This document shows positions 3,960 to 21,754 of a stretch of DNA of 28,268 bases, piece by piece. Made by a program: the position numbers and the translations under genes. The notes beneath the pieces are model-generated. The model was not told where the DNA came from. It saw only the letters and a list, made by a program, of their open reading frames with translations, and searched no databases. Each line of letters opens with the position of its first letter. Position 1 is the stretch's first letter. The DNA lies in the NCBI GenBank assembly GCA_964457665.1, contig CAYWHQ010000001.1:1-28268 (forward strand), written 5' to 3'. The DNA is from an uncultured Prolixibacteraceae bacterium (lineage in GTDB: Bacteria > Bacteroidota > Bacteroidia > Bacteroidales > FEN-979).

Positions 3960-4026
3960 TCCGCTCTTTTAAGGAACACCAACTGACTTGGGTACTCATA
4001 TAAGTAAAACCGGCAATTACCACCTG

Positions 4027-4965
4027 ATGCTTCCGCGGATCTTCTTTTTGCTGGCCGCCACGATACTGATAATCCCTTCAGGGAATACCCAGCAGGCTCC
4101 CCTGCTGACACAGTATATGTTCAACAATATCGTATATAATCCAGCCTTTACCGGACTGGGGGGAGGTATTTGTGCCAATGGTCTCATCCGTGAGCAATAT
4201 TTCGGATACAAGGATGCAGAAGGGAACAAGGTTTCACCTGAAACCATTTTTCTGACGGTTGATTCACCGATCAAGGCTCTCCACGGAGGGGTCGGAGGCG
4301 CAATCTTTCAGGATAAGCTTGGATTTTTCAGGAACATCGGCGTAAAACTCGGCTATGCTTTTCACACCGGTTGGGGGGAAGGTGATTTCTCGGCCGGGAT
4401 CCATGTTGGTTTACAGAGTGCCAGATGGGATTATTCCAAATTTAAACCGGTGAATGAAGATCCCCTGCTTTCGGAAGCAGAGGAGCCGACAGATATGATT
4501 TTTGACATTTCAGCCGGTGTTTTTTACCGGGTTCCTGATAAATTTTATATAGGTTTGTCAGGGGATCAGTTCATTCAGTCGTATGGAAAGAATACTCATT
4601 ACAGACTGAAACGCCAGTTTTTTCTTACGGGAGGCTATAACTGGCTTTTGCCGAATCATCCGGCTTTTGAACTTCAGCCCTCCGTGCTGTTGATGTACGA
4701 TGGGGCTGCCTTTCAGTTCAATGTCTCCGCACTTTTACAGTATAACAGAAAGTTCTACGGTGGGTTGGGTTACAGGATTCAGGATGCTGTTATGATCCTT
4801 GCCGGGATGACCATTAAGAATTTCAGGATCGGCTTGTCTTATGACATAAGCACCTCTAAACTAAGCAGGTATAATAACGGAAGTTTTGAAGTTATGGTAG
4901 GATATTGCTTCAAGATAGAGACGGATAAATTCAGGAAGACTTACAGAAATACAAGATTTTTATAA
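4027..4965 (+). CDS. porP: PorP/SprF family type IX secretion outer-membrane beta-barrel
   Basis: Signal peptide followed by QQAPLLTQYMFNNIVYNPAFTG, R-x-Q and GLSYDIS..L.RYN.GSFEV motifs. The basic C-terminal tail KTYRNTRFL and the position directly before gldK fit PorP. The ATG at 4027 is preferred over the TTG at 3988. Confidence 0.88.
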   Translation: MLPRIFFLLAATILIIPSGNTQQAPLLTQYMFNNIVYNPAFTGLGGGICANGLIREQYFGYKDAEGNKVSPETIFLTVDSPIKALHGGVGGAIFQDKLGFFRNIGVKLGYAFHTGWGEGDFSAGIHVGLQSARWDYSKFKPVNEDPLLSEAEEPTDMIFDISAGVFYRVPDKFYIGLSGDQFIQSYGKNTHYRLKRQFFLTGGYNWLLPNHPAFELQPSVLLMYDGAAFQFNVSALLQYNRKFYGGLGYRIQDAVMILAGMTIKNFRIGLSYDISTSKLSRYNNGSFEVMVGYCFKIETDKFRKTYRNTRFL

Positions 4966-4973
4966 AAAAATAC

Positions 4974-4981
4974 TACTTTTG
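4974..4981 (+). promoter_or_regulatory. -7 promoter element upstream of gldK
   Basis: TACTTTTG(CAC), an exact TAnnTTTG match in the porP-gldK intergenic region. Confidence 0.7.
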
Positions 4982-5068
4982 CACTTTTATACAATACCAA
5001 TAAAGCATAACATTGCAAAATAATCTTTGAGAAGCAGCGTTACATTTCTACATTTAACCGGCCAAACA

Positions 5069-6436
5069 ATGAAAAATCTGCTCATTTATGTCGCCATTGC
5101 TGTTGTTCTGGGTAGTTGCGGAAACTCAGGCAACGGTGAACTTACCGGGGTCAAGGACCGAAAGAGGTTTTATCAGCCGGATCCTTTTGGAATGGTTTAT
5201 ATCCCCATGGGCAGTTATACCATGGGAGTGAGCGATGAGGATTTGCCTTATACCCAGCTGGCCAATCCCAAAACTGTATCAATTGCCGCCTTTTACATGG
5301 ACCAGACGGAGATTACCAATAATAAGTACCGTCAGTTTGTCTATTGGGTGCGGGACTCGATCGCACGTCGCATACTGGGTGAAATCCAGCCGGATATCTA
5401 TTTTATCTCGGAAAACAAGAAAACCGGAGAGACCTTTGATCCGCCCTTCCTGAACTGGGAGGAAAAGATCGAGTGGAACTCGGAACAGCAGGATGTCAGG
5501 GATGCGCTGGCTCAGATGTATTTGCCGGAAAATGAGAGATATTTCAGAAGGAAGGAGATTGATACGCGCAAGCTCTATTTTGAATACTATTTCGTTGATC
5601 TGAAAGCGGCTGCCATAAAAGATTATGATGCACCGGCTGAGCTCAAGGAGGCCGGTCTTACAAACAGGCCACAAGGGTTGAAAGACCGCTCCGTGTACGT
5701 CAGGAAGGAGGTCATCAATGTTTACCCGGATACGCTTTGCTGGATTCACGACTTCACCTATTCTTTTAATGATCCCATCACTGAGAAATATTTCTGGCAC
5801 CCGGCATATGATAACTACCCGGTTGTCGGGGTGAACTGGAAACAGGCCAATGCATTTTGTATCTGGCGTACCCAATTGAAGAACAGCTATCTTTTTGGAA
5901 AGAAAGGAGAATCTTCGATCAGTGATTTCAGACTGCCTACAGAATCTGAATGGGAATGGGCCGCAAGGGGAGGTTACGACGGAAATCCCTATCCATGGGG
6001 CGGGCCCTACACCCGGAACGACAAGGGATGCTTCCTGGCCAATTTCAAGCCCAACCGGGGTAACTATATCGATGACGGCGGTTTACACACCGTCATTTGC
6101 GGCCATTATCCACCCAATGACTATGGTCTGTACGACATGGCCGGAAATGTGGCTGAATGGACAAGCAGTGCATTTCACCCATCCTCCTATAACTTTTCAT
6201 GGGATCTTAATCCTGACTATAAATATAATGCCAAGGATTCTGATCCTCCCGACCTTAAGCGGAAAGTTACCCGGGGAGGTTCGTGGAAAGATGTGGCCTA
6301 TGTGCTGAGAGTATCCACCCGATCACATGAATATCAGGATACCGCCAAATGCTATGTCGGATTCCGTTGCGTGCAGAATTTCCTGGGAAGACAAAAAAAT
6401 GACAATCCTGCAAGAGCATCACACGTCTATAATTAA
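5069..6436 (+). CDS. gldK: T9SS/gliding ring lipoprotein GldK/PorK (FGE-sulfatase fold)
   Basis: Lipoprotein signal MKNLL...VLGSC then GNGELTGV. Motifs FYMDQTEITN, YPDTLCW, YFWHPAYDNYPVVGV, RLPTESEWEWAARGG, YDMAGNVAEW, RGGSWKD and GFRCV. The start is the ATG at 5069. Confidence 0.95.
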   Translation: MKNLLIYVAIAVVLGSCGNSGNGELTGVKDRKRFYQPDPFGMVYIPMGSYTMGVSDEDLPYTQLANPKTVSIAAFYMDQTEITNNKYRQFVYWVRDSIARRILGEIQPDIYFISENKKTGETFDPPFLNWEEKIEWNSEQQDVRDALAQMYLPENERYFRRKEIDTRKLYFEYYFVDLKAAAIKDYDAPAELKEAGLTNRPQGLKDRSVYVRKEVINVYPDTLCWIHDFTYSFNDPITEKYFWHPAYDNYPVVGVNWKQANAFCIWRTQLKNSYLFGKKGESSISDFRLPTESEWEWAARGGYDGNPYPWGGPYTRNDKGCFLANFKPNRGNYIDDGGLHTVICGHYPPNDYGLYDMAGNVAEWTSSAFHPSSYNFSWDLNPDYKYNAKDSDPPDLKRKVTRGGSWKDVAYVLRVSTRSHEYQDTAKCYVGFRCVQNFLGRQKNDNPARASHVYN

Positions 6437-6491
6437 ACCTGTAAATCATATTTCAGTCTAAACACATTCAACTTTTAAATCTTTTATCACT

Positions 6492-7673
6492 ATGGGTTTA
6501 CTTGCGTTAGTCAGAACCAAACAGTACCGCAATTTCATGGCCAAGCTCTATGGATGGGGAGCATCGGTTGTTATCATTGGCGCGTTGTTTAAGATCAACC
6601 ACTATCCCGGAGCAGATATTATGTTGATTGTGGGACTCGGAACAGAATCCATCATCTTTTTCTTCTCCGCTTTTGAACCACCCCACGTGGAACCCGACTG
6701 GAGCCTTGTCTATCCGCAGCTTGCCGGAATGTATCATGAATCGGAACTGGATTCTGCCAAAGCGCTGGCTACCGGTGAAACCGTTACACAGGAGCTGGAT
6801 AAGATGCTCGAACAGGCCAAAATCGGACCGGATTTGATTGAAAGTCTTGGATCCGGTCTGCGGAATCTTTCTGAAACAACCACCCAGCTTTCCAAAGTAT
6901 CAGATGCCAGCCTTGCCAATGAACAGTTTGTGAGCACTGTGAAGTCGGCCACGGAGTCGGCTTCAGACCTGACCAATTCGTATCGCAAGACCAGCATGGC
7001 ACTTGAGCACAGCGCATCGGCATCCGAAGAACAAATCCAACATATTCAGGCAACATCGAAAAATGCTTCTGCCCTCTCCCATACATTCGCAGAAGTTTCC
7101 GAATCCCTGAAAGCCGACCTTGAGGCCAACAAAGCTTTCTCTGCAAGTCTTACGAACGTAACCAAATCGGCCAACACTTTTGTGGAGAAATACAATGAAT
7201 CGGTGGATGTCCTGTCAAAAACAACGGCTACACTCAGCACCTCGGCTACTGAAGGCCAGCAGTTCAATCAGCAGTTGCAGCGGATTTCCAATAATCTTTC
7301 GGCGCTCAATGCACTCTATGAGCTGCATCTTCAGGGTTCAAACGAACAGATGGAAAATACGAACAAATTCAATACGGTGCTTTCCAGATTTGCGGTTGAC
7401 ATGAATGACACTGTTGCTGCTACTAACCGGTATAAGGAGCAGATGGCCCAGCTTAACAATATTGTGGAGAAGCAGTTACAGACTTCAACCGGTCAGGTAG
7501 ATGCTTCTGCCCGGATGCAGCAGACCATGAGCAGCTTTATGGAGGAATTGCATGCATCCGTCCAGCATACGGCAAAATTTAAAGAGGAGGTTGACAATCT
7601 GGCGAAGAACATCTCTGCCCTCAATAAAGTCTATGGCAATATGTTATCAGCAATGAACATCAATCTCAAGTAA
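6492..7673 (+). CDS. gldL: T9SS/gliding motor subunit GldL/PorL with an unusually long cytoplasmic tail
   Basis: YGWGASVVIIGALFKI, TM2 GTESIIFFFSAFEP (with the conserved protonatable Glu, E52), DWSLVYPQL and a C-terminal ISALNKVYGNMLSAM. Confidence 0.95.
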   Translation: MGLLALVRTKQYRNFMAKLYGWGASVVIIGALFKINHYPGADIMLIVGLGTESIIFFFSAFEPPHVEPDWSLVYPQLAGMYHESELDSAKALATGETVTQELDKMLEQAKIGPDLIESLGSGLRNLSETTTQLSKVSDASLANEQFVSTVKSATESASDLTNSYRKTSMALEHSASASEEQIQHIQATSKNASALSHTFAEVSESLKADLEANKAFSASLTNVTKSANTFVEKYNESVDVLSKTTATLSTSATEGQQFNQQLQRISNNLSALNALYELHLQGSNEQMENTNKFNTVLSRFAVDMNDTVAATNRYKEQMAQLNNIVEKQLQTSTGQVDASARMQQTMSSFMEELHASVQHTAKFKEEVDNLAKNISALNKVYGNMLSAMNINLK

Positions 7674-7721
7674 CTTTTCCTTCGCCACACAATATTAAAT
7701 CATACTAAAACAAAAGACTAA

Positions 7722-9323
7722 ATGGCCGGATATAAAGAGACACCGAGGCAAAAGATGATCGGGATGATGTACCTGGTTCTTACGGCGCTCCTGGCACTCA
7801 ACGTCTCCAAACAGATCCTCGATGCTTTTGTGGTGGTGAATGAAAGTACCGAAACCACCAATGAGAATTTCTCCAAGAAAATCGACAACACATACGATAA
7901 ATTCAAAATTCAGCATCAGCTCAACCAAACAAAGGTAGAACCGTACTGGATTAAGGCACAAAAGGCTCAGTACCTGTCCAACCGGATGACACGGTACATT
8001 GATAGTATCAAGGCCATTGTCATTATGAAAACGGAAAGACTGGATAACCTTGACTCTGCCTGGAACCTGAGCCTTTCGAAAGTGAACAGAAAGGACAATT
8101 ATGATGTCCCGACATCTTATTTTATAGGCAGTTCCAGCGACGGAAGCTCCGGCCCTGCTCACGAACTCAAACTGGCCATTGAGCAGTACAAAAAGGATAT
8201 GCTCGTTCTTGTCGATCCCCAGTACAGAAGCGGAATAAAGATGGGACTCGATACCGAGGGCCCCTTCTACGATGCAAGCGGAAACAAGCAGAACTGGGAG
8301 ATGCATAATTTTTACCATACCATCCTGGCTGCCTGTGTCACAATACTGAATCAGTTGAAAGCAGATGTCTTTAACGCCGAATTCGATGTGGTCAACCACC
8401 TGTTTGCCACCATTACCGCCGAAGACTGGAAATTCGACGAGATTCAGGCCAAGGTAATACCCAAAAGCAGTTATATCTTTCTCGGAGAAGAGTATCAGGC
8501 TGAAATTCTTGTTGCGGCATACGACACAAAATCAAATCCTGACGTAAGATATATTCTGGGTTCCGATACCATGACGCCGGGAAATTTCAGAAATGGTACC
8601 CAGCTGGAGGGAAAGGATGGCGTGGTGAATATCAAGCTCTCCGGGAGTTCAGAAGGTCTTAAGAAATATGCCGGGATTATCAGAATTGTCAGCCCGCTCG
8701 GGGATACCATGACATTTCATTTTCATGACGAGTATATCGTTGCAAAACCAGCTTTGACAATTTCGCCAACTAAAATGAATGTATTCTATATTGGAATTGA
8801 CAACCCGGTCTCAATCACTGTCCCCGGCGGACCTGAGAGGATCGTTCCTGTTATCTCTGCCGGCAAAATCCGCCAGGAAGGGAAGGACTGGATCGTATAT
8901 GATCTTCCCAAAGGTTCAAAAGAAGCCATTATCACAGTAAGCGCCGTGTTTTCGGGGAAATCAAAGAATATGGGAGCATTCCCGTTCCGTCTGAAAAACA
9001 TTCCAAATCCGATTGCCAGAATTGCCGGTAAAAGCGACGGCGTGGTTTCAAAAAGCCTTGTGGAGGCCAGTCCCTATATCATACCCGAAATGCCACCGGG
9101 ATTTGACTTTGACATTAAATTTACCGTTACCTCCTTTACATTCGTAACGGATATACTGGGGGATATTTTTCAGACCAAAGTTCAGGGGAACAGGCTTACA
9201 CCTGAGATTGTCAAAATGATCAACGGAGCCAGAAAAAACAAACGAATCTGGATTGAGGATATCGTGGCAAAAGGTCCTGCAGGAGAACAGTCTGCGCCAA
9301 CAATATCTTTGAAAATCAATTAA
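7722..9323 (+). CDS. gldM: T9SS/gliding motor rotor GldM/PorM
   Basis: N-terminal TPRQKMIGMMYLVLTALLALNVS (R9 and Y17 positions conserved), AEILVAAYD, KMNVFYIGIDNPVSITVPG and a C-terminal IWIEDI.A.GP domain. Confidence 0.96.
   Translation: MAGYKETPRQKMIGMMYLVLTALLALNVSKQILDAFVVVNESTETTNENFSKKIDNTYDKFKIQHQLNQTKVEPYWIKAQKAQYLSNRMTRYIDSIKAIVIMKTERLDNLDSAWNLSLSKVNRKDNYDVPTSYFIGSSSDGSSGPAHELKLAIEQYKKDMLVLVDPQYRSGIKMGLDTEGPFYDASGNKQNWEMHNFYHTILAACVTILNQLKADVFNAEFDVVNHLFATITAEDWKFDEIQAKVIPKSSYIFLGEEYQAEILVAAYDTKSNPDVRYILGSDTMTPGNFRNGTQLEGKDGVVNIKLSGSSEGLKKYAGIIRIVSPLGDTMTFHFHDEYIVAKPALTISPTKMNVFYIGIDNPVSITVPGGPERIVPVISAGKIRQEGKDWIVYDLPKGSKEAIITVSAVFSGKSKNMGAFPFRLKNIPNPIARIAGKSDGVVSKSLVEASPYIIPEMPPGFDFDIKFTVTSFTFVTDILGDIFQTKVQGNRLTPEIVKMINGARKNKRIWIEDIVAKGPAGEQSAPTISLKIN
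9304..9311 (+). promoter_or_regulatory. Candidate internal -7 element for gldN-recG, inside the 3' end of gldM
   Basis: TATCTTTG is an exact TAnnTTTG match 30 nt before the gldN ATG. No clear -33 TTTG was found. Confidence 0.35.
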
Positions 9324-9341
9324 CATAACAACGGAGGAATC

Positions 9342-10196
9342 ATGAAAAAAGCACTCTTCCTGACAATCATAATGATCCTTGCCGCAGGCAGTTATGAGAA
9401 TCTGTCATCACAGGTTCTGGAAGGCCCGCCACGTGATGGCGTGTACGATAAAACTGCTGTCAACGTGATTCAGCCGATAGCCTATCCTTACCTTCGGGAA
9501 GCAGACATCATCTGGACCCGCAGGATCTGGAGAGTCGTGGATATGCGTGAGAAAATGAACCAACCGTTCTATTTTCCCGAACAACCTCAGAACGACTGGA
9601 AAAGCTTCGTTCAGATCCTTGTCGATGGTGTCAGGGAAGGTACCATAACCGCCTATTCCATCATGTCGGACCAGTTTCTTTATCCGATCACGGCAAAAGA
9701 GTTATCAGACCAGCTGGACAAACCCCAGCGTGTTACCCTCAAGCGTCCCGATAATCCTGATGAGGAGTATGATACCATCATTACCAAAAAATTCGAAGCC
9801 AGTGATGTAAAAAAGTTCAGGATCAAGGAAGACTGGTATTTCGACAAGCAGCGCTCTGTGCTGGAGGTCCGTATCCTTGGTATCTGTCCGGTTGGGGATA
9901 ACCTCGATGAGAAAGGTGAATATCGTGGCGACCAGCCTCTTTTCTGGGTATATTTTCCGGAGTGCCGCGAATTGTTTGCCAGGAATGAGATGTTCAATCT
10001 GAAAAACGGTTCTGCTGGCCGGCTGACTTACGATGATGTGTTCATGAAACGGTTATTCGCTTCCTATATTTACAAGGAGGAGAATGTGTATGACCGGAAA
10101 ATTGACGATTACGCCTTGGGAGTCGATGCACTGCTTGAAGCGGAAAAAGCCAAGAACTCCATTTTTGAGTTTGAATCAAGTCTTTGGGAATATTGA
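9342..10196 (+). CDS. gldN: T9SS/gliding ring protein GldN/PorN
   Basis: Signal peptide and motifs YLREADIIWTRRIWRVVD, IKEDWYFDKQRS..RILGICP, LFWVYFP and YDDVF.KR.F.SYIYKEEN. Confidence 0.94.
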   Translation: MKKALFLTIIMILAAGSYENLSSQVLEGPPRDGVYDKTAVNVIQPIAYPYLREADIIWTRRIWRVVDMREKMNQPFYFPEQPQNDWKSFVQILVDGVREGTITAYSIMSDQFLYPITAKELSDQLDKPQRVTLKRPDNPDEEYDTIITKKFEASDVKKFRIKEDWYFDKQRSVLEVRILGICPVGDNLDEKGEYRGDQPLFWVYFPECRELFARNEMFNLKNGSAGRLTYDDVFMKRLFASYIYKEENVYDRKIDDYALGVDALLEAEKAKNSIFEFESSLWEY

Positions 10197-12384: not shown

Positions 12385-14853
12385 ATGAAAATTTCCTATC
12401 GCTGGCTGATGAACTATACTGCCCTGGAGATCGGGGCCGACCGCATTGCGGAAATGCTTACCGGATGCGGCCTGGAAGTGGAAAGTACTGAAACCTACCG
12501 AAACATAGGAGGAGGCCTTGATCAGGTTGTAATCGGAGAAGTGGTGGAATGTTTTCCGCATCCGGATTCCGATCATCTGAAAATTACACGGGTTAATACT
12601 GGTCAACCGGAACTACTCCAGGTGGTCTGCGGGGCATCGAATGTTGCCAGCGGCCAGAAGGTTGTGGTTGCCATGCCAGGCGCCAGACTCTTCTCCGGAG
12701 ACAAGGAGATCATCATAGGGAAGACCAGGATCAGGGGGGAATTTTCTGAGGGCATGATATGCGCCGAGGATGAGCTGGGCATCAGCGACGACCATTCCGG
12801 AATCATGGTTCTTTCACCTGACGCAGTACCGGGAACTTCGGCAAAAGAGTATTTTGATGTATTTGAAGATATTGTCTTCACTATTGGACTGACGCCCAAC
12901 AGAACCGATGCTACTTCCCATACAGGCGTTGCCCGCGATCTGATTGCCGTGTTCAACAATGCCGGAAAGGATAAATTTTCAGAAGTGAACGATATCCGGC
13001 TGATCATGCCGGACATCAGCACATTTCGTGAAGGCATGGGTGCTTTCGCGACAAGGGTGGTGGTTGAAGATACCATCGCCTGCATAAGATACAGTGGATT
13101 GAATATTACCGGAATTACCGTTACTGAATCCCCCGGGTGGCTGAAGAATTTTCTCCAGGCCGTCGGCATCAGGCCGATTAACAATGTTGTGGATGTCACC
13201 AATTTCATCCTGATGGAATTAGGCCAGCCACTTCATGCTTTTAATACCGACAAAATTGCGGGGAATACTGTAGTGGTCAGGAAAAGTAAAGAGGGTGCCA
13301 GATTTCTTACCCTCGACGGGATTGAAAGAATCCTCTCAGCTGAGGATCTGATGATATGCGATGCGGAGAATCCCATGTGTATCGGAGGCGTTTTCGGAGG
13401 TTGGGCGTCAGGAGTTACCGTGGAAACGAAAAACATCTTTCTGGAGAGCGCTTGTTTCGATCCGCTGCATATCCGCAAAACATCCCGCAGGCATGCCCTC
13501 CAGACCGACGCATCATTCCGTTTTGAAAGGGGAACAGATCCGGAAATGACAATCTTTGCGCTGAAAAGAGCAGCGCTTCTTATCACCATGATTGCAGGGG
13601 GAAGTGTTTCGTCACGGATCACAGATATTTACCCGGTTCCTTTCAAACCGGCCCGGGTGAGGTTATCGTATGATTTCCTCGACAGGATTGCCGGCAAAAT
13701 CCTCGACAGGGAGGTGACCGGAAATATCCTGAAGGATCTTGGTATCGGTATTGAACCATCGGAGAATGGATTGATGGCGAGCGTTCCCGGTTTCAAGGTG
13801 GATGTGAACAGGGAAGCCGACCTGGCAGAAGAGATCCTGAGAATCTATGGATATAATAATATCGGCATACCTGAAGAGGTGCATGCCTCTCTATCCTGGT
13901 CCACATTTCCAGATCGATGGAAACTTCGTTCGATTGTTTCGGAGGTGCTTTGTTCTCAGGGTTTTACCGAAATAATGAACAACTCCCTGACAAGGTCATC
14001 CTATTATGAATCCGGTCAATCCTTTCCCAGGGAGGGGTGCGTAATGATTATGAACCCGCTCAGCAGGGAACTGGATGCCATGCGTCAGACTTTGCTTTTC
14101 GGAGGACTGGAGTCCATAACATATAACCGGAACAGGAAAGTCACGGATCTGAAGTTTTTTGAATTCGGTTCGGTATACATCCGGACAGAAACCCAAAACG
14201 ACACCCCGGTGGAGGGAATTCTGGAGAAAGAGGAACTGGCGGTTTTTTTAACGGGTAGAAAAGAGCCTGATAACTGGAATTCTGCCGGAGGCATGGTCGA
14301 CCATTACGATATAAAAGGAATAGTTACTGCCCTTTTCTGCAGGCTTGGACTGGATCCCGATGGTTTTTCACTACATCCTTTTTCCAGTGATGAGCTTACG
14401 GATGGTACAGAATGGAGGTGGCAGGGAAAACGGGTCGGTGTGACGGGAGAGGTCCGACAGCCGGTATTGAAAGTGACCGATTGTAAGGCAGCGGTTTTTT
14501 ATGCCTGTCTCGACTGGACTGACATACTGAAGATACTTCCGGAAGATGCTACCAGGTTCAGGGAGTTGCCAAAGTATCCGGAAGTACGACGGGATCTTGC
14601 CTTGCTGCTGGATCAGAGCGTAACGTTCGAAACCCTGAAGGAACTTGCCTACCGGAATGGGAAATCCTTGCTGCGGCAGGTCATTCTCTTTGATGTGTAT
14701 GAAGGAGAAAAGATTGAAGCAGGGAAGAAGTCCTATGCGATTGGCTTTATTCTGAGAGATGACAGCATGACACTCACCGACCAGGTAATCGATGGTGTGA
14801 TGGCGCAGATAGTCAAAGCATACACGGAGATATTGCACGCCCAGATAAGATAA
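12385..14853 (+). CDS. pheT: Phenylalanyl-tRNA synthetase beta subunit
   Basis: MKISYRWL, an OB-fold (HPDSDHL...VVCGASNV), TPNR.D..SH.GVARD, RPINNVVDVTNF...GQPLHAF, SFRFERG, READLAEEILRIYGYNNI and an FDX-ACB end (KYPEVRRDLAL). Confidence 0.98.
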   Translation: MKISYRWLMNYTALEIGADRIAEMLTGCGLEVESTETYRNIGGGLDQVVIGEVVECFPHPDSDHLKITRVNTGQPELLQVVCGASNVASGQKVVVAMPGARLFSGDKEIIIGKTRIRGEFSEGMICAEDELGISDDHSGIMVLSPDAVPGTSAKEYFDVFEDIVFTIGLTPNRTDATSHTGVARDLIAVFNNAGKDKFSEVNDIRLIMPDISTFREGMGAFATRVVVEDTIACIRYSGLNITGITVTESPGWLKNFLQAVGIRPINNVVDVTNFILMELGQPLHAFNTDKIAGNTVVVRKSKEGARFLTLDGIERILSAEDLMICDAENPMCIGGVFGGWASGVTVETKNIFLESACFDPLHIRKTSRRHALQTDASFRFERGTDPEMTIFALKRAALLITMIAGGSVSSRITDIYPVPFKPARVRLSYDFLDRIAGKILDREVTGNILKDLGIGIEPSENGLMASVPGFKVDVNREADLAEEILRIYGYNNIGIPEEVHASLSWSTFPDRWKLRSIVSEVLCSQGFTEIMNNSLTRSSYYESGQSFPREGCVMIMNPLSRELDAMRQTLLFGGLESITYNRNRKVTDLKFFEFGSVYIRTETQNDTPVEGILEKEELAVFLTGRKEPDNWNSAGGMVDHYDIKGIVTALFCRLGLDPDGFSLHPFSSDELTDGTEWRWQGKRVGVTGEVRQPVLKVTDCKAAVFYACLDWTDILKILPEDATRFRELPKYPEVRRDLALLLDQSVTFETLKELAYRNGKSLLRQVILFDVYEGEKIEAGKKSYAIGFILRDDSMTLTDQVIDGVMAQIVKAYTEILHAQIR

Positions 14854-14868
14854 TCCAATATTTACATT

Positions 14869-16527
14869 ATGACAGCAAATAATCAGGAACTCAGGTATTC
14901 TATCAGTCCGGCAGGGGAGAAGTACCCGTTGCCTCAGCAAATGGATTACGACAAAGAGATCAAACGAATTGAAAAACTGGTAACCCAGGCCAAAAAGCAG
15001 AACAAGGAGATTGTGGTTGTCATGGGCCTGGGTTTTGTTGGTGCCGTCATGGCAGCCATTGTAGCCGACACACGGGATAAGAAAGGCAGAAATACGAAAC
15101 TTGTGATTGGATGTCAGCGGCCCAGCACCCGCAGTTACTGGAAGATTCCCATGATCAATAACGGTGTTTCACCGGTTAAAGCTGAAGATCCCGAGGTAGA
15201 CATACTGATTGAAAGATGTGTGCTCCAAAACAAGTCTCTCCTTGCCACTTTTCACAGTGAATGTCTACGTTTCGCCGATTGCGTGGTGGTGGATGTTCAG
15301 TGCGATTATTCAAAGAAGGAACTTGGCAATATGAAGAATGGCGAGGCTGATATGGCTGCCCTGGAGGATACAATGCGGACCATCGGTGAAAAAATCCCGC
15401 CGGAATGCCTGGTGCTGATCGAAACCACGGTAGCGCCGGGAACAACAGAGTTTGTAGCATGGCCGATACTGAAGAAGGAGTTCCAGAAAAGAAAGATCAG
15501 TTCAGTTCCTTTGCTGGCTCACAGTTTTGAACGCGTCATGCCGGGTAAGGATTATGTGGCAAGCATTCGTGATTTCTGGAGGGTTTGTTCCGGTTGTGAA
15601 GAAAATGCACGCAGGAGGGTAGAAAAGTTCCTGCATGAGGTGCTGAATACCAAAGATTTTCCTTTGACTGTTATGGACAGGCCTATTGAATCGGAAACCA
15701 CCAAGATCGTTGAAAACTCATACAGGGCGACCATTCTTGCGTTCCTGAATGAATGGAGTCTTTTTGCTGAAAGAAACGGTGTTGACCTTATCAAGGTCAT
15801 TCAGGCCATCAAAATGCGTCCGACCCATAATAATATGATTTTTCCGGGCCCCGGGATCGGAGGTTACTGTTTACCAAAGGACGGAGGACTTGGGTTCTGG
15901 GCATATAAACACATTCTGGGTTTTGAGGATGGCGAAAAGATTTTCCGGATTACCCCTGCTGCCATTGACATCAATGATACCCGGGGATTGCATGTGGCAG
16001 AACTCACGCGCGACGCGCTGAGGAATATGGGACGATACATAGCAGGTGCACAGGTCCTGTTATGCGGAGCAAGTTACCGGCAGGATGTGGGAGATACGAG
16101 ATACAGCGGAAGCGAGATGGTTGTGCGGAAGCTTACCGAGATGAGCGCAGAGATACGTATCCATGATCCTTATGTGGATCACTGGTATGAATTGGAGGAA
16201 CAGGATGTTTATCCGGCTCCGGGACATAGCTGGAAACGGTTTTTCCGGAACCAGGAGGGACTTAGGAACACGCTGGTTCACAAGGATCTGAAAAAAGCCA
16301 TCCGGGGAGTGGAGGCATTGATTCTGGCGGTTCCGCACGCTCAGTATCTGGGACTCGACCCGGATACGATAGTTAAATGGGCAGGTGGTCCTATTGCTGT
16401 AATTGATGCTTTTGGTATTCTTGACGATAAAAGGATTCGCCGTTATTTTGAACTGGGATGTGAAGTCAAAGCCCTCGGCAGGGGACATATCACACGCCTG
16501 AAACAGGAGGTAAGAAAACAAAAATAA
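14869..16527 (+). CDS. Nucleotide-sugar dehydrogenase (UDP-glucose/GDP-mannose dehydrogenase superfamily), long 552-aa form
   Basis: Rossmann GLGFVG, IETTVAPGTT, FERVMPG, TTKIVENSYR, catalytic GPGIGGYCLPKD (Cys334) and C-terminal YRQDVGDTRYS. The substrate cannot be assigned. Confidence 0.88.
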   Translation: MTANNQELRYSISPAGEKYPLPQQMDYDKEIKRIEKLVTQAKKQNKEIVVVMGLGFVGAVMAAIVADTRDKKGRNTKLVIGCQRPSTRSYWKIPMINNGVSPVKAEDPEVDILIERCVLQNKSLLATFHSECLRFADCVVVDVQCDYSKKELGNMKNGEADMAALEDTMRTIGEKIPPECLVLIETTVAPGTTEFVAWPILKKEFQKRKISSVPLLAHSFERVMPGKDYVASIRDFWRVCSGCEENARRRVEKFLHEVLNTKDFPLTVMDRPIESETTKIVENSYRATILAFLNEWSLFAERNGVDLIKVIQAIKMRPTHNNMIFPGPGIGGYCLPKDGGLGFWAYKHILGFEDGEKIFRITPAAIDINDTRGLHVAELTRDALRNMGRYIAGAQVLLCGASYRQDVGDTRYSGSEMVVRKLTEMSAEIRIHDPYVDHWYELEEQDVYPAPGHSWKRFFRNQEGLRNTLVHKDLKKAIRGVEALILAVPHAQYLGLDPDTIVKWAGGPIAVIDAFGILDDKRIRRYFELGCEVKALGRGHITRLKQEVRKQK

Positions 16528-16554: not shown

Positions 16555-17787
16555 ATGGATTTATTATCGGTCAAACAGCGCTTTGGGATCATAGGCAATT
16601 CGCCATTGCTCGACAGGGCTATTGATATTGCACGTCAGGTGGCGGCAACCGATATCACCGTTTTGATCACCGGGGAGAGTGGAACAGGAAAGGAGTTTTT
16701 TCCAAAAATCATTCATCAGCTCAGTGCCCGGAAGCATGGCCCCTATATTGCGGTAAATTGCGGTGCTATCCCGGAAGGGACGATCGACTCGGAATTATTC
16801 GGCCATGAAAAAGGATCTTTCACCGGCGCACATGAAGCCCGGAAAGGATATTTTGAAGTAGTGAATGGCGGTACCATCTTTTTGGATGAAGTGGCTGAAT
16901 TGCCGCTTGGAACACAGGTTCGCCTTCTCAGGGTACTCGAAACGGGAGAGTTTATCAGGGTTGGTTCCTCGAAAGTCCTTAAAACAAATGTCAGAGTTGT
17001 AGGAGCCACCAACGTGGATGTTCCGCAAGCAGTTGCTTCCGGAAAGTTTCGCCAGGACCTATACTACCGGCTGAATACTGTTCCGATTTTCGTACCACCG
17101 CTCAGGGAGAGGAAGGAAGACATTTATCTGCTCTTCAGGAAATTCGCCTCCGATGCCGCCGAACGCTTCAGAATGCCTTCTATTCAGCTGGACGAGAAGG
17201 CACAACAGATGCTGACAGCATACCGGTGGCCAGGGAATATCAGGCAACTTAAAAATCTGACAGAGCAGATATCAATCATTGAGAAAAATCGTTTGATCGA
17301 TGCCGATGTTCTGCTGAAGTATATGCCGCAAGCGCATTCCAGTGATCTTCCGGTACTTTATAAGGGAGATGATGCATCCAGGATCAGCGAAAGAGAGTTA
17401 CTGTATAAGGTGCTATTCGACATGAAGAAGGATATGACCGACCTTAAGCAGCTGGTCATGAACCTTCTCCGAAGTGAAGATGCCATCAGCAATGAAATGG
17501 GGGACAACATGCATCTTATCCGCCGGTTATATCAGGACTTTGAATTGACAAAAGAGCAGCCCACACCTATGGTGGTAGGTCCCGACACCTCTCTTCATGT
17601 TGCTGAACAGGAAACTTTCGAGGAGCCGGAGGAGATCACGGAATCACTTTCGCTGCTTGACCATGAGAAGGGGTTCATCCGGAAAGCACTGACGAAACAT
17701 GACGGTAAACGAAAAGATGCCGCCAGGGAACTGGGCATTTCCGAAAGGACCCTATATCGAAAGATTAAAGAGTATAATCTTGATTGA
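16555..17787 (+). CDS. Sigma54-interacting AAA+ activator (bEBP) with Fis-type HTH and no N-terminal sensor domain
   Basis: Walker [14 protein letters not shown]-like [15 protein letters not shown] loop 1, Walker B IFLDEV, R-finger FRQDLYYRL and WPGNIRQL. C-terminal [19 protein letters not shown]. The AAA domain begins about 10 residues from the start. Confidence 0.93.
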
Positions 17788-18327: not shown

Positions 18328-19212
18328 ATGAATAAACAGGATTTCAATACTTTAGTCACCAATCCCGGTTTAATCAACGAACAGGGGATGTCGCTTATTC
18401 AGACCATCATTGGCAGATTCCCATATTGTCAGTCAGCGCATCTGTTGCAGGCATATTATTTATACAGGAGCAAGGATCCCCGCTTTGAGGAGGTGATGAA
18501 GAAGAGCGCGGTTTATCTTGGTGACAGAAGAAGGCTCAGGTCACTTCAGCAGGAATGGGATCAGGAATTGGAAGTTGTGACAGAACCGCTGTCACAGGAG
18601 GAGGGGACGCAGCAGGGAGAGATATCCGAGACAACGGAGTTTCCCATAACCGAGCAGGATATTGACCTCGGAAAGGTCATGGAGCTACTTTCTGAGGATC
18701 CTGATACCCTTCCGGAAGTCACCGATGTGTCTGACGTCCCGGTTCCAGTTATTTCAGCATCAACCAGACCAGAAACGCCAGCAGTGGATGCGGCCGGGAA
18801 AAATGTTCCTGCAGAAACCGTTCCTCCATCCGCATCAACGTGTTCCAGGGATGATCTGCTTGCCATCGTGAAGAAACGGCTTGCCGAAATTCAATCCGGA
18901 AAAGAGTATGAGCCGGTGTCATTGAAGGAGATCCTTCATCAACCACCGCCTATCTCCAAGGAGGAGCTTATCGACCGTTTTATCATCAATGAACCCCAGA
19001 TTACCAGACCAAAGGTTTCTTTCAATGCACCTTCTGACAATATCCAAAAAGGAAATACTGATGACGGGGAGATCGTTTCTGAAACCCTTGCAAAACTCTA
19101 TGCCAGTCAGGGTAATTCACACAAAGCCATTCAGATTTATCAGAAATTGTCTTTGGTAATTCCGGAAAAAAGTCGTTACTTTGCAGCCCAAATTCAAAAA
19201 CTGAGACATTAA
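18328..19212 (+). CDS. Conserved hypothetical cytoplasmic protein with helical/TPR-like ends and an acidic linker
   Basis: N-terminal FPYCQSAHLL and C-terminal SETLAKLYASQGNSHKAIQIYQKL..PEKSRYFA (one TPR-like motif). The middle is rich in E, D, T and P. No signal peptide. Confidence 0.75.
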   Translation: MNKQDFNTLVTNPGLINEQGMSLIQTIIGRFPYCQSAHLLQAYYLYRSKDPRFEEVMKKSAVYLGDRRRLRSLQQEWDQELEVVTEPLSQEEGTQQGEISETTEFPITEQDIDLGKVMELLSEDPDTLPEVTDVSDVPVPVISASTRPETPAVDAAGKNVPAETVPPSASTCSRDDLLAIVKKRLAEIQSGKEYEPVSLKEILHQPPPISKEELIDRFIINEPQITRPKVSFNAPSDNIQKGNTDDGEIVSETLAKLYASQGNSHKAIQIYQKLSLVIPEKSRYFAAQIQKLRH

Positions 19213-19247: not shown

Positions 19248-19577
19248 ATGGGACTATATATTCTGATTGCTGTATTAATGCTGATTGCCAGTGTACTGAT
19301 GGTGCTGGTCGTCCTGGTCCAGAACTCGAAAGGGGGAGGACTTGCTTCCAATTTTGCCTCATCTAACCAGTTTATGGGGGTACGAAAAACTGCCGACTTT
19401 CTGGAAAAAGCAACCTGGACGCTTGCAATTGCCATGCTGGTTTTGAGTGTATTCTCAATTTTTGTGATTCCTAAAAGTACAGGCACACAGCAGACCATGG
19501 AGAGTGAGATCCAGAAGCAGATCGATGAGTCGAAGGCAACACCTATTACTGATTATCAGGCCCCTCCGGCGAACTGA
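19248..19577 (+). CDS. secG: Preprotein translocase subunit SecG
   Basis: Two TM segments joined by VLVQNSKGGGLASNF, then FLEKATW. Confidence 0.96.
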   Translation: MGLYILIAVLMLIASVLMVLVVLVQNSKGGGLASNFASSNQFMGVRKTADFLEKATWTLAIAMLVLSVFSIFVIPKSTGTQQTMESEIQKQIDESKATPITDYQAPPAN

Positions 19578-19596
19578 GAACTATTACAACGTATTG

Positions 19597-19621
19597 AAAC
19601 CGCCTTCATGGCGGTTTTTTT
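19597..19621 (+). terminator. Intrinsic terminator after secG
   Basis: AAACCGCC-TTCAT-GGCGGTTT followed by a T run. Confidence 0.88.
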
Positions 19622-19622
19622 A

Positions 19623-19691
19623 TGTCAGTTTGTCATACGGATCCAACAGTTGGCAGAAGATCTTATTGAAATTTCCTGCCAACAGGTGTCA
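19623..19691. promoter_or_regulatory. Repeat array upstream of groES, candidate upstream activator sequences
   Basis: TGTCA at 19623, 19631 and 19687, TGGCA at 19651 and TGCCA at 19677. An 8-bp inverted repeat GTTGGCAG (19649-19656) / CTGCCAAC (19676-19683) is also present. Confidence 0.5.
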
Positions 19692-19711
19692 AAAATGCAT
19701 TTTAAAAACTC

Positions 19712-19726
19712 TGGCATAAAATATGA
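19712..19726 (+). promoter_or_regulatory. Sigma54-like -24/-12 promoter for groESL
   Basis: TGGCATAAAATATGA has GG and G(A) separated by the canonical 10 nt. The -24 TGGCA is exact and the -12 is degenerate (ATGA versus TTGC). Confidence 0.5.
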
Positions 19727-19783
19727 CCATTGCGAACAAAACCATACAGGTCAATATTCATGTATAACTAAAAAAATATCAAA

Positions 19784-20062
19784 ATGACAAAACTGAAGAT
19801 TAAACCCCTTGCCGACCGGGTTGTTGTGGAGCCCGCTCCCGCAGAAGAGAAAACAGCCGGCGGAATTATCATTCCCGATACCGCTAAGGAAAAACCCCAG
19901 AAAGGAACCATCATGGCTGTTGGTCCTGGAAAAAAGGACGAACCTCTTACCGTCAAGGTAGGCGATGTTGTTTTGTATGGAAAATATTCCGGCACAGAAA
20001 TCACCATCGATGGTGAGAACTATCTCATCATGCGTGAATCCGATATTGTTGCAATCATCTGA
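19784..20062 (+). CDS. groES: Co-chaperonin GroES
   Basis: [39 protein letters not shown] and IMRESDI. Confidence 0.99.
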
Positions 20063-20113
20063 GGCAATAATATTTATCAGAATTATTTATAAACATATCA
20101 AAAAATTAAAGAA

Positions 20114-21754
20114 ATGGCAAAAGACATTTATTTCAATATAAAGGCGAGAGAAGCACTGAAAACAGGGGTGGATGCTCTTTCAAACGCAGTGAAAGTAACA
20201 CTGGGGCCCAAAGGCAGGAATGTGATTATCGAGAAATCCTATGGTTCGCCGGTGGTCACAAAAGATGGTGTAACGGTTGCCAAGGAGGTTGAGCTGAAAG
20301 ATCCGGTGGAAAACATGGGAGCACAGATGGTGAAGGAAGTTGCCAGCAAAACCAGTGACATTGCCGGTGACGGAACAACCACGGCCACTGTTCTGGCGCA
20401 ATCGATATTTACTACAGGTCTGAAAAATGTGACCGCCGGAGCCAATCCGATGGACCTCAAACGCGGTATTGACAAGGCTGTGATTGAAGTGATCAAGTCG
20501 CTGAAAAATCAGACCAGGCAGGTTGGCGACAGCATGGAAAAGATTGAACAGGTTGCCTCGGTATCTGCCAACAACGACACCTTCATTGGCAAAATGATCG
20601 CCGAAGCCATGGGGAAGGTTAAGAAGGAAGGCGTCATAACCATCGAAGAGGCCAAAGGCATCGAAACCACTGTGAAAGTTGTGGAAGGAATGCAGTTTGA
20701 CCGCGGGTATATTTCTCCCTACTTTGTAACTGATACGGAGAAAATGGAAGTAGTATATGACAATCCGTATATACTTATTCACGACAAGAAGATCTCAGTC
20801 ATGAAAGACCTTCTTCCTGTGCTTGAAAAAGTCGTTCAGACCGGTCGTCCCATGATCATTATCAGCGAAGATATGGAAGGAGAGGCTTTGGCGACACTCG
20901 TTGTGAACAAGATCCGCGGAACACTCAAGGTTGCCGCAGTAAAGGCTCCCGGTTTCGGCGACCGCCGCAAGGAGATGCTTGAGGATATTGCCGTCCTTAC
21001 TGGTGGTACAGTGATCAGCGAGGAGAAAGGATATAAACTGGAAGATTCTACACTTCAGTATCTCGGTCAGGCTGAAAAGGTGACGATCGACAAGGAAAAT
21101 ACAACGATCATTAACGGACAGGGAAAGAAATCGGACATTAACGGCCGTATTAATCAGATCAAATCCCAGATCGACAAGACCACCAGCGATTATGACCGTG
21201 AAAAACTGCAGGAACGGCTTGCAAAACTGGCAGGCGGTGTAGCCGTGATCTATGTGGGTGCTGCTTCCGAAGTGGAGATGAAGGAAAAGAAAGACCGCTT
21301 CGATGATGCGCTGCATGCTACCCGTGCGGCTATCGAAGAGGGGATCATCCCGGGAGGTGGCGTGGCATTCCTGCGCGCACAGATAGACATTGAAAAAATG
21401 AAAGGCGACAATGAGGATGAGAACACTGGCATTGCCATTGTTAAACGTGCCCTGGAAGAACCACTCCGTCAGATCGTGGAGAATGCAGGAATGGAAGGCT
21501 CAGTAATCATCCAGAAGGTAAAGACCGGTAAAGATGATTACGGCTTCAATGCCCGGACCGAAGAGTATGAAAACCTCTACCAGAGCGGTGTGATCGATCC
21601 GACCAAGGTAGCCCGGGTAGCCCTCGAGAATGCAGCTTCCATTGCAAGCATGCTGCTCACCACAGAGTGTGTGCTGGTTACGCATAAGGAAGAAAAACCG
21701 GCCGGCGGCCCTCCAATGAATCCTGGCATGGGCGGAATGGACGGGATGTATTAA
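20114..21754 (+). CDS. groEL: Chaperonin GroEL
   Basis: [70 protein letters not shown] and a GGM-rich tail. Confidence 0.99.

Follow-up and report, generated by a model that had tools for sequence, protein, structure and literature searches.

What switches on the groES and groEL genes in a member of the Bacteroidota? To our knowledge, this phylum as a rule has neither sigma-32 nor HrcA/CIRCE, and the accessible literature names no factor that turns on its heat-shock genes. The locus considered here lies in a stretch of 28,268 nucleotides of DNA, the whole of which was analysed (hereafter, the window). The window is attributed to Bacteroidota because it carries, at 3988-10196 and in a single orientation, a type IX secretion and gliding cluster of porP/sprF followed by gldK (FGE-sulfatase family), gldL, gldM and gldN. 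Downstream of this cluster come recG, pheT and a gene for a nucleotide-sugar dehydrogenase and then, from position 16555, genes for a sigma-54 enhancer-binding protein, lptE, a 294-aa protein, secG, groES, groEL, a DUF4468 protein and rlmN. The co-oriented block that ends with secG is possibly a single transcription unit. The rpoN gene is absent from the window, and no chaperone gene other than groES and groEL occurs in it or in any of the loci that we fetched. The features on which the argument turns are listed below in window coordinates.

16555-17787, plus strand: gene for a sigma-54 enhancer-binding protein of 410 aa (Pfam PF00158, PF25601, PF02954), the candidate groESL activator
19248-19577, plus strand: secG (Pfam SecG, TIGR00810), last gene of the co-oriented upstream block
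19596-19621, plus strand: intrinsic terminator of secG, a GC-rich hairpin and then a T-run (-18.5 kcal/mol, z = -6.7)
19622-19638, plus strand: distal site ATGTCAGTTTGTCATAC, two direct TGTCA copies offset by 8 nt, their positions relative to the T of TGGCA being -89 and -81
19642-19648, plus strand: TCCAACA, by alignment a degenerate remnant of an inverted third arm, TCTGACA, with which the hairpin of relatives is completed
19649-19683, no strand assigned: inverted repeat GTTGGCAG-N19-CTGCCAAC, window-specific, absent from the nearest relatives and of weak fold
19675-19691, plus strand: proximal box CCTGCCAACAGGTGTCA, homologue of CCTGAAAAAWTGTCy with a 5-nt insertion, its TGTCA (19687) at -25
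19692-19711, no strand assigned: A/T-rich stretch that includes the palindrome AAAATGCATTTT and abuts the -24 element on its upstream side; conservation extends to the A/T richness but not to the palindrome
19709-19730, plus strand: predicted sigma-54 promoter CTCTGGCATAAAATATGACCAT, with GG at 19713-19714, TG at 19724-19725 and a score of 20.2 with a position-specific scoring matrix (PSSM)
19738-19740, plus strand: predicted transcription start, placed by the 26-nt distance from the first G to the start in Flavobacterium psychrophilum groS
19784-21754, plus strand: groES (19784-20062) and groEL (20114-21754), recognised with Pfam and NCBIfam, the genes under control

An earlier reading of the window, made from its sequence only, had pointed to a cluster of short motifs between the secG stop (19577) and the groES ATG (19784). 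TG[TGC]CA pentamers are indeed found at all six positions that it gave (19623, 19631, 19651, 19677, 19687 and 19712), as are the 8-bp inverted repeat (GTTGGCAG at 19649 and CTGCCAAC at 19676, separated by a spacer of 19 nt), the two copies of CCAACAG (19643 and 19679), the A-tract palindrome AAAATGCATTTT at 19692 and the -24/-12-like element TGGCATAAAATATGA at 19712-19726. For a pentamer class that was defined post hoc, after inspection of the sequence, this is the densest place in the 28 kb: the background is 0.37 per 94 bp window-wide, and nowhere else are there five or more. Two of the six pentamers belong to the conserved distal site, one to the conserved proximal box and one to the -24 element of the promoter; the remaining two (TGGCA and TGCCA) are window-specific and constitute the arms of the single inverted repeat GTTGGCAG/CTGCCAAC.

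The same reading had held that familiar control elements are missing here. Our searches agree: TAnnTTTG, which lies around -7 in Bacteroidota housekeeping promoters, is absent from 19578-19783, and the CIRCE operator TTAGCACTC-N9-GAGTGCTAA has no match in the entire window even with up to three mismatches allowed. A scan with a sigma-70-type consensus returned weak minus-strand matches only, and no known RNA family scored above threshold in 19400-19900. The terminator that had been proposed behind secG is a hairpin at 19596-19618 followed by a T-run, with the folding energy and z-score given in the list.

The evidence for a sigma-54 promoter comes chiefly from comparison with related loci. We built the PSSM from the groES-upstream sites of syntenic loci and scanned 1.6 Mb of fetched DNA with it on both strands. 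In the window, the site at 19712 scores 20.2, and nothing else on either strand reaches 9. Over the 1.6 Mb, scores of at least 19 fall before groES, or before groEL where groES is absent, with two exceptions, one inside pheT and one 69 nt before an activator gene. The -24 element is TGGCAT (19712-19717), of which TGGCA is invariant in the orthologous sites, partly by construction of the anchor. In the -12 element, the G at 19725 stands at the correct spacing after GG and is preceded by T; the canonical C (TGC) is replaced by A (TGA), and A occupies that position in 63% of 53 orthologues.

Taken as a bare pattern, TGGCAY-N6-TGM has a single occurrence in the window where chance would give 1.3, and the match alone is therefore not significant; position and conservation carry the weight. 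The element TGGCAT-N5-ATGA (19712-19726) is orthologous to a block, cTTTGGCAyAAAtTaTGAca, that more than 130 Bacteroidota loci have at 46-100 nt before groES, and TGGCA[CT]-N5-n[TC]Gn lies 46-100 nt before the groES ATG in 52 of the 53 syntenic loci having groES. Conservation extends to positions that the anchor did not force, i.e., TT before TGG, A after TGGCAy and ACA after TG. Within the intergenic region of the window, exact matches in relatives are confined to 19712-19727, where several relatives are identical at 16 of 16 bases. Of 135 non-redundant loci, by comparison, 10 have TAnnTTTG before groES, a frequency at background level.

These data bear on the simplest alternative, that the -24/-12 match is fortuitous and groESL transcripts come from secG read-through or from a housekeeping promoter that has escaped recognition. 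The non-canonical -12 element and the chance-level pattern count speak for it; conservation of the block, with its constant spacing to groES, in more than 130 loci, the strong terminator after secG, the lack of a conserved TAnnTTTG and a mapped start site that uses the same block (see below) all speak against it, and we regard it as very improbable.

Two variations were seen among the fetched loci. In L017 (9510), L024 (9544) and L134, groES is missing and the same sigma-54 promoter stands directly before groEL. In L126, L146, L181, L185 and L199, a variant promoter, TTTGGAATGATTTTTGAT (GGAAT for GGCAC), precedes groES; it resembles the mapped clpB promoter of F. psychrophilum, TTGGAATAACAATTGA.

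The sequence-only reading had referred to a flavobacterial transcriptome in which sigma-54 motifs were noted at chaperone genes. That study exists: in a start-site map of F. psychrophilum obtained by 5'-end RNA-seq, a sigma-54 motif (SM4) was reported at groES-groEL, lon, dnaK, grpE-dnaJ, htpG, clpB and skp (Guerin et al. 2021, PMC9723704). The groS promoter there is AAAaaatgtcagttttaaatccTTGGCATAATTTCTGAAAAGacaataac, with a sigma-54 motif posterior of 1, and transcription from it starts 26 nt beyond the first G of TTGGCATAATTTCTGA (PMC9723704, Table S2); the lon, clpB and skp promoters likewise have a TGA at -12, within TTGA (PMC9723704). Transferred to the window, the groS spacing puts the start at about 19739 and gives a 5' untranslated region of about 45 nt. 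This estimate, itself a prediction, agrees with the start formerly predicted at 19737-19739. The claim that groESL is under a sigma-54 promoter, and not under CIRCE/HrcA or housekeeping control, is strongly supported by the phylogenetic footprint and by the F. psychrophilum map.

The likeness between the two loci is close. In F. psychrophilum, the gene order is activator (THC0290_0733), lptE, a gene of unknown function, secG, groS and groL, and this order is shared with the window, together with the TTGGCAT-N5-nTGA block and, preceding the -24 element, a TGTC box rich in A. The species differ in their order within the phylum, the window being Bacteroidales-like, and in the position of the proximal box, which is at -17 in F. 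psychrophilum and at -25 here. In the published promoter strings, the sequence just upstream of -24 is AAAAAATGTCAG for groS, TTTTGTCC for clpB and ATATGCCAAAA for lon; groS and clpB have a AAAATGTC-type box that is similar to the proximal box of the window. A TGTC-type box may be common to the groS, clpB and lon promoters, a pattern that is suggestive but thin, with three promoters compared.

Furthermore, a computational survey of 2025 (PLoS One, PMC12316311) predicted sigma-54 promoters at groES, groEL, dnaK, dnaJ, grpE and protease genes, and found such predicted chaperone promoters enriched in Bacteroidota and Planctomycetota. It works at the promoter level only, whereas the present analysis also concerns an enhancer site, its phasing and the assignment of an activator; the F. 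psychrophilum study likewise assigns neither an activator nor a distal site (PMC9723704). With these two publications, the core idea, sigma-54 at chaperone genes of Bacteroidota, has already been published, and the window is a further instance of sigma-54 control of groESL, in another order of the phylum. Compared with regulation by CIRCE/HrcA and by sigma-32, the target genes and the physiological role are the same; the difference is that those systems use repression or an alternative factor of the sigma-70 family, as opposed to the activation of a sigma-54 promoter proposed here. A phased TGTCA enhancer, its double role as the terminator of secG and a sensor-less activator were not found in the accessible literature.

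We turn now to the sequences upstream of the promoter, in which TGTCA/TGACA is enriched 17- to 30-fold across the related loci, as part of longer words at fixed positions. There are two principal arrangements. In one (class A, 44 loci), the element has the form AAAATGTCAGAWTGTCA-loop-WTCTGACATTTTTTTTT, with TGTCA at -87 and -79 and TGACA at -66, and is followed by a proximal box, CCTGAAAAAWTGTCy, with its TGTC at -28. In the other (class B, 33 loci), the same three-part element is found at -46, -38 and -25. The distal tandem of the window belongs to the position class of the 44 class A loci: ATGTCAGTTTGTCA (19622-19635) aligns with the invariant ATGTCAGATTGTCA of the nearest relatives, and its spacing of -89/-81 is that of the main phase class. 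The window departs from this layout in that the third arm is missing and the proximal box is interrupted by 5 inserted nt. We consider the distal tandem (19622-19638) a probable binding site of an activator.

The association of the tandem with groES is also seen when the loci are collected by other means. In 933 kb of DNA from loci chosen via the activator protein, and hence unbiased regarding the site, we counted 38 copies of TGTCA-N3-TGTCA where 1.5 would be expected; of these, 33 lie within 400 nt upstream of groES or groEL. Scanning metagenomes with the three-part pattern yielded 120 loci, some 105 of which have the promoter and groES directly downstream; the others are truncated or apparent chance matches. 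None of these loci has the three-part site at another chaperone gene, for a pattern that favoured groES, and the element appears specific to groES in the loci sampled.

Only some of the motifs to which enhancer function had been ascribed are conserved. The tandem TGTCA (19623 and 19631) and the proximal TGTCA (19687) are conserved; the inverted repeat, the CCAACAG repeat and the palindrome are particular to the window. None of the relatives aligned, the nearest of which has a GroEL just 92% identical, shows GTTGGCAG/CTGCCAAC, the CCAACAG pair or the exact AAAATGCATTTT; the exact GroES sequence of the window is not on record. Two relatives fetched in order to test the window-specific repeats, L201 and L202, are of the L001/L006 type. 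The inverted repeat is structurally weak (RNA fold z = -1.96): GTTGGCAG stands where relatives have a T-run, and it creates the repeat together with the insertion in the proximal box.

The T-run in the relatives leads to a second function of the distal element. In most loci, the TGTCA element takes the form of a hairpin and then a T-run just after secG, and it therefore serves as the secG terminator there (L003: -15.7 kcal/mol, z = -5.9). Compensatory changes, TGCCAGA...TCTGGCA in L039 and TGTCATA...TATGACA in L012, keep the stem, so that part of the conservation of the distal site reflects terminator function. In the window and in Sphingobacteriales, the terminator is a separate GC-rich one, yet tandem TGTCA or TGACA repeats are retained behind it; decay of the hairpin in the window fits with the new terminator directly upstream.

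Across the loci, the distance between tandem and promoter falls into classes of 35, 46, 56.5, 66, 77.5, 87.6, 98, ... 158.6, 169, 180.5 and 189 nt, i.e., distances that differ by whole helical turns (Rayleigh 0.70 at a period of 10.25 bp, p = 0.003, with each class counted once and a null of random positions for which the period was likewise optimised). Sigma-54 enhancers classically occupy one helix face with respect to their promoter, and helically phased distances fit a site for an activator. Conserved, repeated upstream sites on a fixed helix face, as looked for in an enhancer, were thus found across the loci.

Might the promoter be real, and TGTCA no more than the secG terminator or a remnant of it, with the enhancer elsewhere or another activator at work and the neighbouring protein regulating, e.g., envelope genes linked to lptE and secG? 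The hairpin and T-run with compensatory stem changes in most loci, the L003 fold included, are what this explanation predicts, and both stem length and loop of the distal element vary, which is unusual for the binding site of a dimer. The stem sequences of terminators are, on the other hand, normally not conserved across orders, the repeats are kept beside a separate terminator in the window and in Sphingobacteriales, a terminator does not need helical phasing to a promoter, and a further TGTC box lies near the promoter. Given its conservation of sequence across orders, its retention beside a separate terminator and its phasing, the TGTCA element is more than a terminator. We return to this alternative, which we think unlikely, with the activator.

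According to another explanation, the TGTCA repeats bind a separate regulator (for instance, a heat-shock repressor of the HrcA or CtsR kind) that modulates the promoter, with an activator supplied from elsewhere or acting from solution. Tandem direct repeats near a promoter are operator-like; in one large class of loci, a mere 20 nt or so separate the end of the site from the -24 element, less than is typical of enhancers, and the TGTCA tandem may loosely resemble the tandem CtsR box. Sigma-54 promoters, however, stay silent unless activated and rarely require a repressor, the locus has no linked gene for a candidate repressor, and phasing over 35-190 nt fits looping to the polymerase better than occlusion. 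This we judge improbable, more so than the preceding alternative.

A small resemblance within the intergenic region may be recorded here: TTTTATGTCAG, the start of the distal site (19618-19628), is the reverse complement of CTGGCATAAAA in the -24 element (19711-19721) at 10 of 11 positions, and the upstream pentamers and the -24 element have the common form TGNCA.

The protein encoded at 16555-17787 has the make-up of a sigma-54 activator. Its AAA+ sigma-54 interaction domain (PF00158, E = 1.4e-66) begins at residue 12 and contains a Walker A motif (GESGTGKE), the GSFTGA loop and a Walker B motif (TIFLDEV); a linker of about 100 residues and a Fis-type helix-turn-helix (HTH) at residues 370-407 (PF02954) complete it. 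In comparisons with PDB structures, residue 12 stands opposite the start of isolated central domains and of PspF. With the AAA+ domain starting there, the protein has no receiver, GAF or PAS sensor domain. An N-terminal regulatory domain of the receiver, GAF, PAS or V4R type is common, although not obligatory, in the family of enhancer-binding proteins, and members without it form a PspF-like subgroup. The HTH is invariant in 78 orthologues, across orders, in line with the conserved DNA motif.

The closest known layout is that of PspF and pspA of Escherichia coli, where an AAA+ domain and an HTH without an N-terminal sensor serve a stress-response sigma-54 promoter with upstream sites. PspF differs in being held in check by PspA, no PspA-like partner being evident here, and in its DNA sites and regulon; the resemblance is one of layout and not of orthology. 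The locus can also be likened to lonD of Myxococcus xanthus, a heat-shock gene controlled by the sigma-54 activator HsfA (of HsfA/HsfB). Unlike the protein of the window, HsfA has a receiver domain, being a response regulator of a two-component system.

Synteny links this protein with groESL. Using it as query, we fetched 80 loci from Bacteroidales, Sphingobacteriales, Cytophagales and Flavobacteriales with activators of 57-79% identity, and the order activator, lptE, unknown gene, secG, groES, groEL is found in about 55 of them, as it is in F. psychrophilum. Conversely, among 38 loci picked by the upstream DNA site alone, 33 have the activator gene upstream in the same orientation, no more than 5 kb away; five have none nearby. 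The earlier proposal that the activator 2 kb upstream is the natural candidate agrees with this synteny, which is the sole line of evidence behind it, and on such circumstantial evidence the neighbouring activator can be called a likely but unproven partner of groESL. The five loci without it are a point for the alternative in which TGTCA is a terminator and another activator is at work; so are the three such activators of F. psychrophilum, none of which has been assigned (PMC9723704). The sequence-only reading had also named no assigned cognate activator or binding site, and none came to light in the accessible literature, most of it outside subscription journals.

Upstream of the activator gene itself, tandem TGTCA copies are found at 90-170 nt in three loci. 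Autoregulation as a general feature was considered and rejected, since there is no overall enrichment of TGWCA upstream of the gene and few loci have tandems. Tandem TGTCA/TGACA at this distance was recorded in L030 (~5833), L032 (~5914), L068 (~5901) and L044, and L034 has a sigma-54-like promoter at 5928 (PSSM 19.1), 69 nt upstream of its activator gene. These are hints that the activator may regulate its own gene in some lineages only.

The reading that we favour, with a probability of roughly 0.7, is that a sigma-54 promoter, upstream TGTCA sites and the neighbouring activator drive groES-groEL; it combines the observed motifs, their conservation and helical phasing with synteny and domain layout. 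Transcription of groES-groEL would start near 19739 from the -24/-12-type promoter at 19712-19726, with neither CIRCE/HrcA control nor a housekeeping promoter of the TAnnTTTG type. The tandem TGTCA at 19623/19631, some 115 and 107 nt before the predicted start, would serve this promoter, as would the proximal TGTCA at 19687, with the A/T-rich stretch between the latter and the promoter. The most likely activator would be the protein of 16555-17787, with its AAA+ domain for contact with sigma-54 and its C-terminal HTH in the layout of PspF. We infer that the sigma-54 holoenzyme uses the 19712-19726 promoter in this organism, that the TGTCA sites act as its enhancer and that the 16555-17787 activator binds them. 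As the activator has no sensor domain, its activity is probably set in trans, in the way that PspA controls PspF.

A bolder version can be entertained only tentatively, and it is more doubtful than the reading just given: the sensor-less protein would be the phylum-wide master activator of Bacteroidota heat-shock genes, acting via phased AAAATGTCAG-type sites, one of which doubles as the secG terminator in most lineages, with its activity set in trans, e.g., through titration of chaperones by unfolded proteins, as for sigma-32, HrcA and HspR. Control of the activator by chaperone titration is an attractive but wholly speculative idea.

The window and more than 130 related loci present a sigma-54-type groESL promoter that is conserved across orders. 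To this, the analysis adds two predictions that can be put to the test, one of a defined upstream site and the other of a particular gene as the candidate for the activator. If they hold, a heat-shock regulator would have been identified for a phylum with major gut, oral, soil and fish-pathogenic bacteria, and groESL would provide the unusual case of an essential and highly expressed operon that depends on an enhancer-dependent sigma factor.

Three observations concern the neighbouring genes. The 294-aa protein (18328-19212) is the constant occupant between lptE and secG; it belongs to no Pfam family and has conserved ends, an acidic proline-rich middle and one TPR-like motif at the C-terminus. 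It is conceivable as a partner of the sensor-less activator, a role that nothing supports as yet. The nucleotide-sugar dehydrogenase gene (14869-16527) separates pheT from the activator gene in the window and in a minority of relatives (L007, L008, L011, L014, L015 and L022); in the other relatives, the activator gene directly follows pheT. Moreover, a second tandem, TGACAGCATGACAC, is located at 14760-14773, inside the 3' end of pheT and about 100 nt before the block of dehydrogenase, activator, lptE and secG. About 0.05 such tandems are expected in the window, and the same 14 nt form the core of the site before groES in the Sphingobacteriales loci L042, L055 and L065; in pheT, it may be a by-product of the coding sequence (DSMT).
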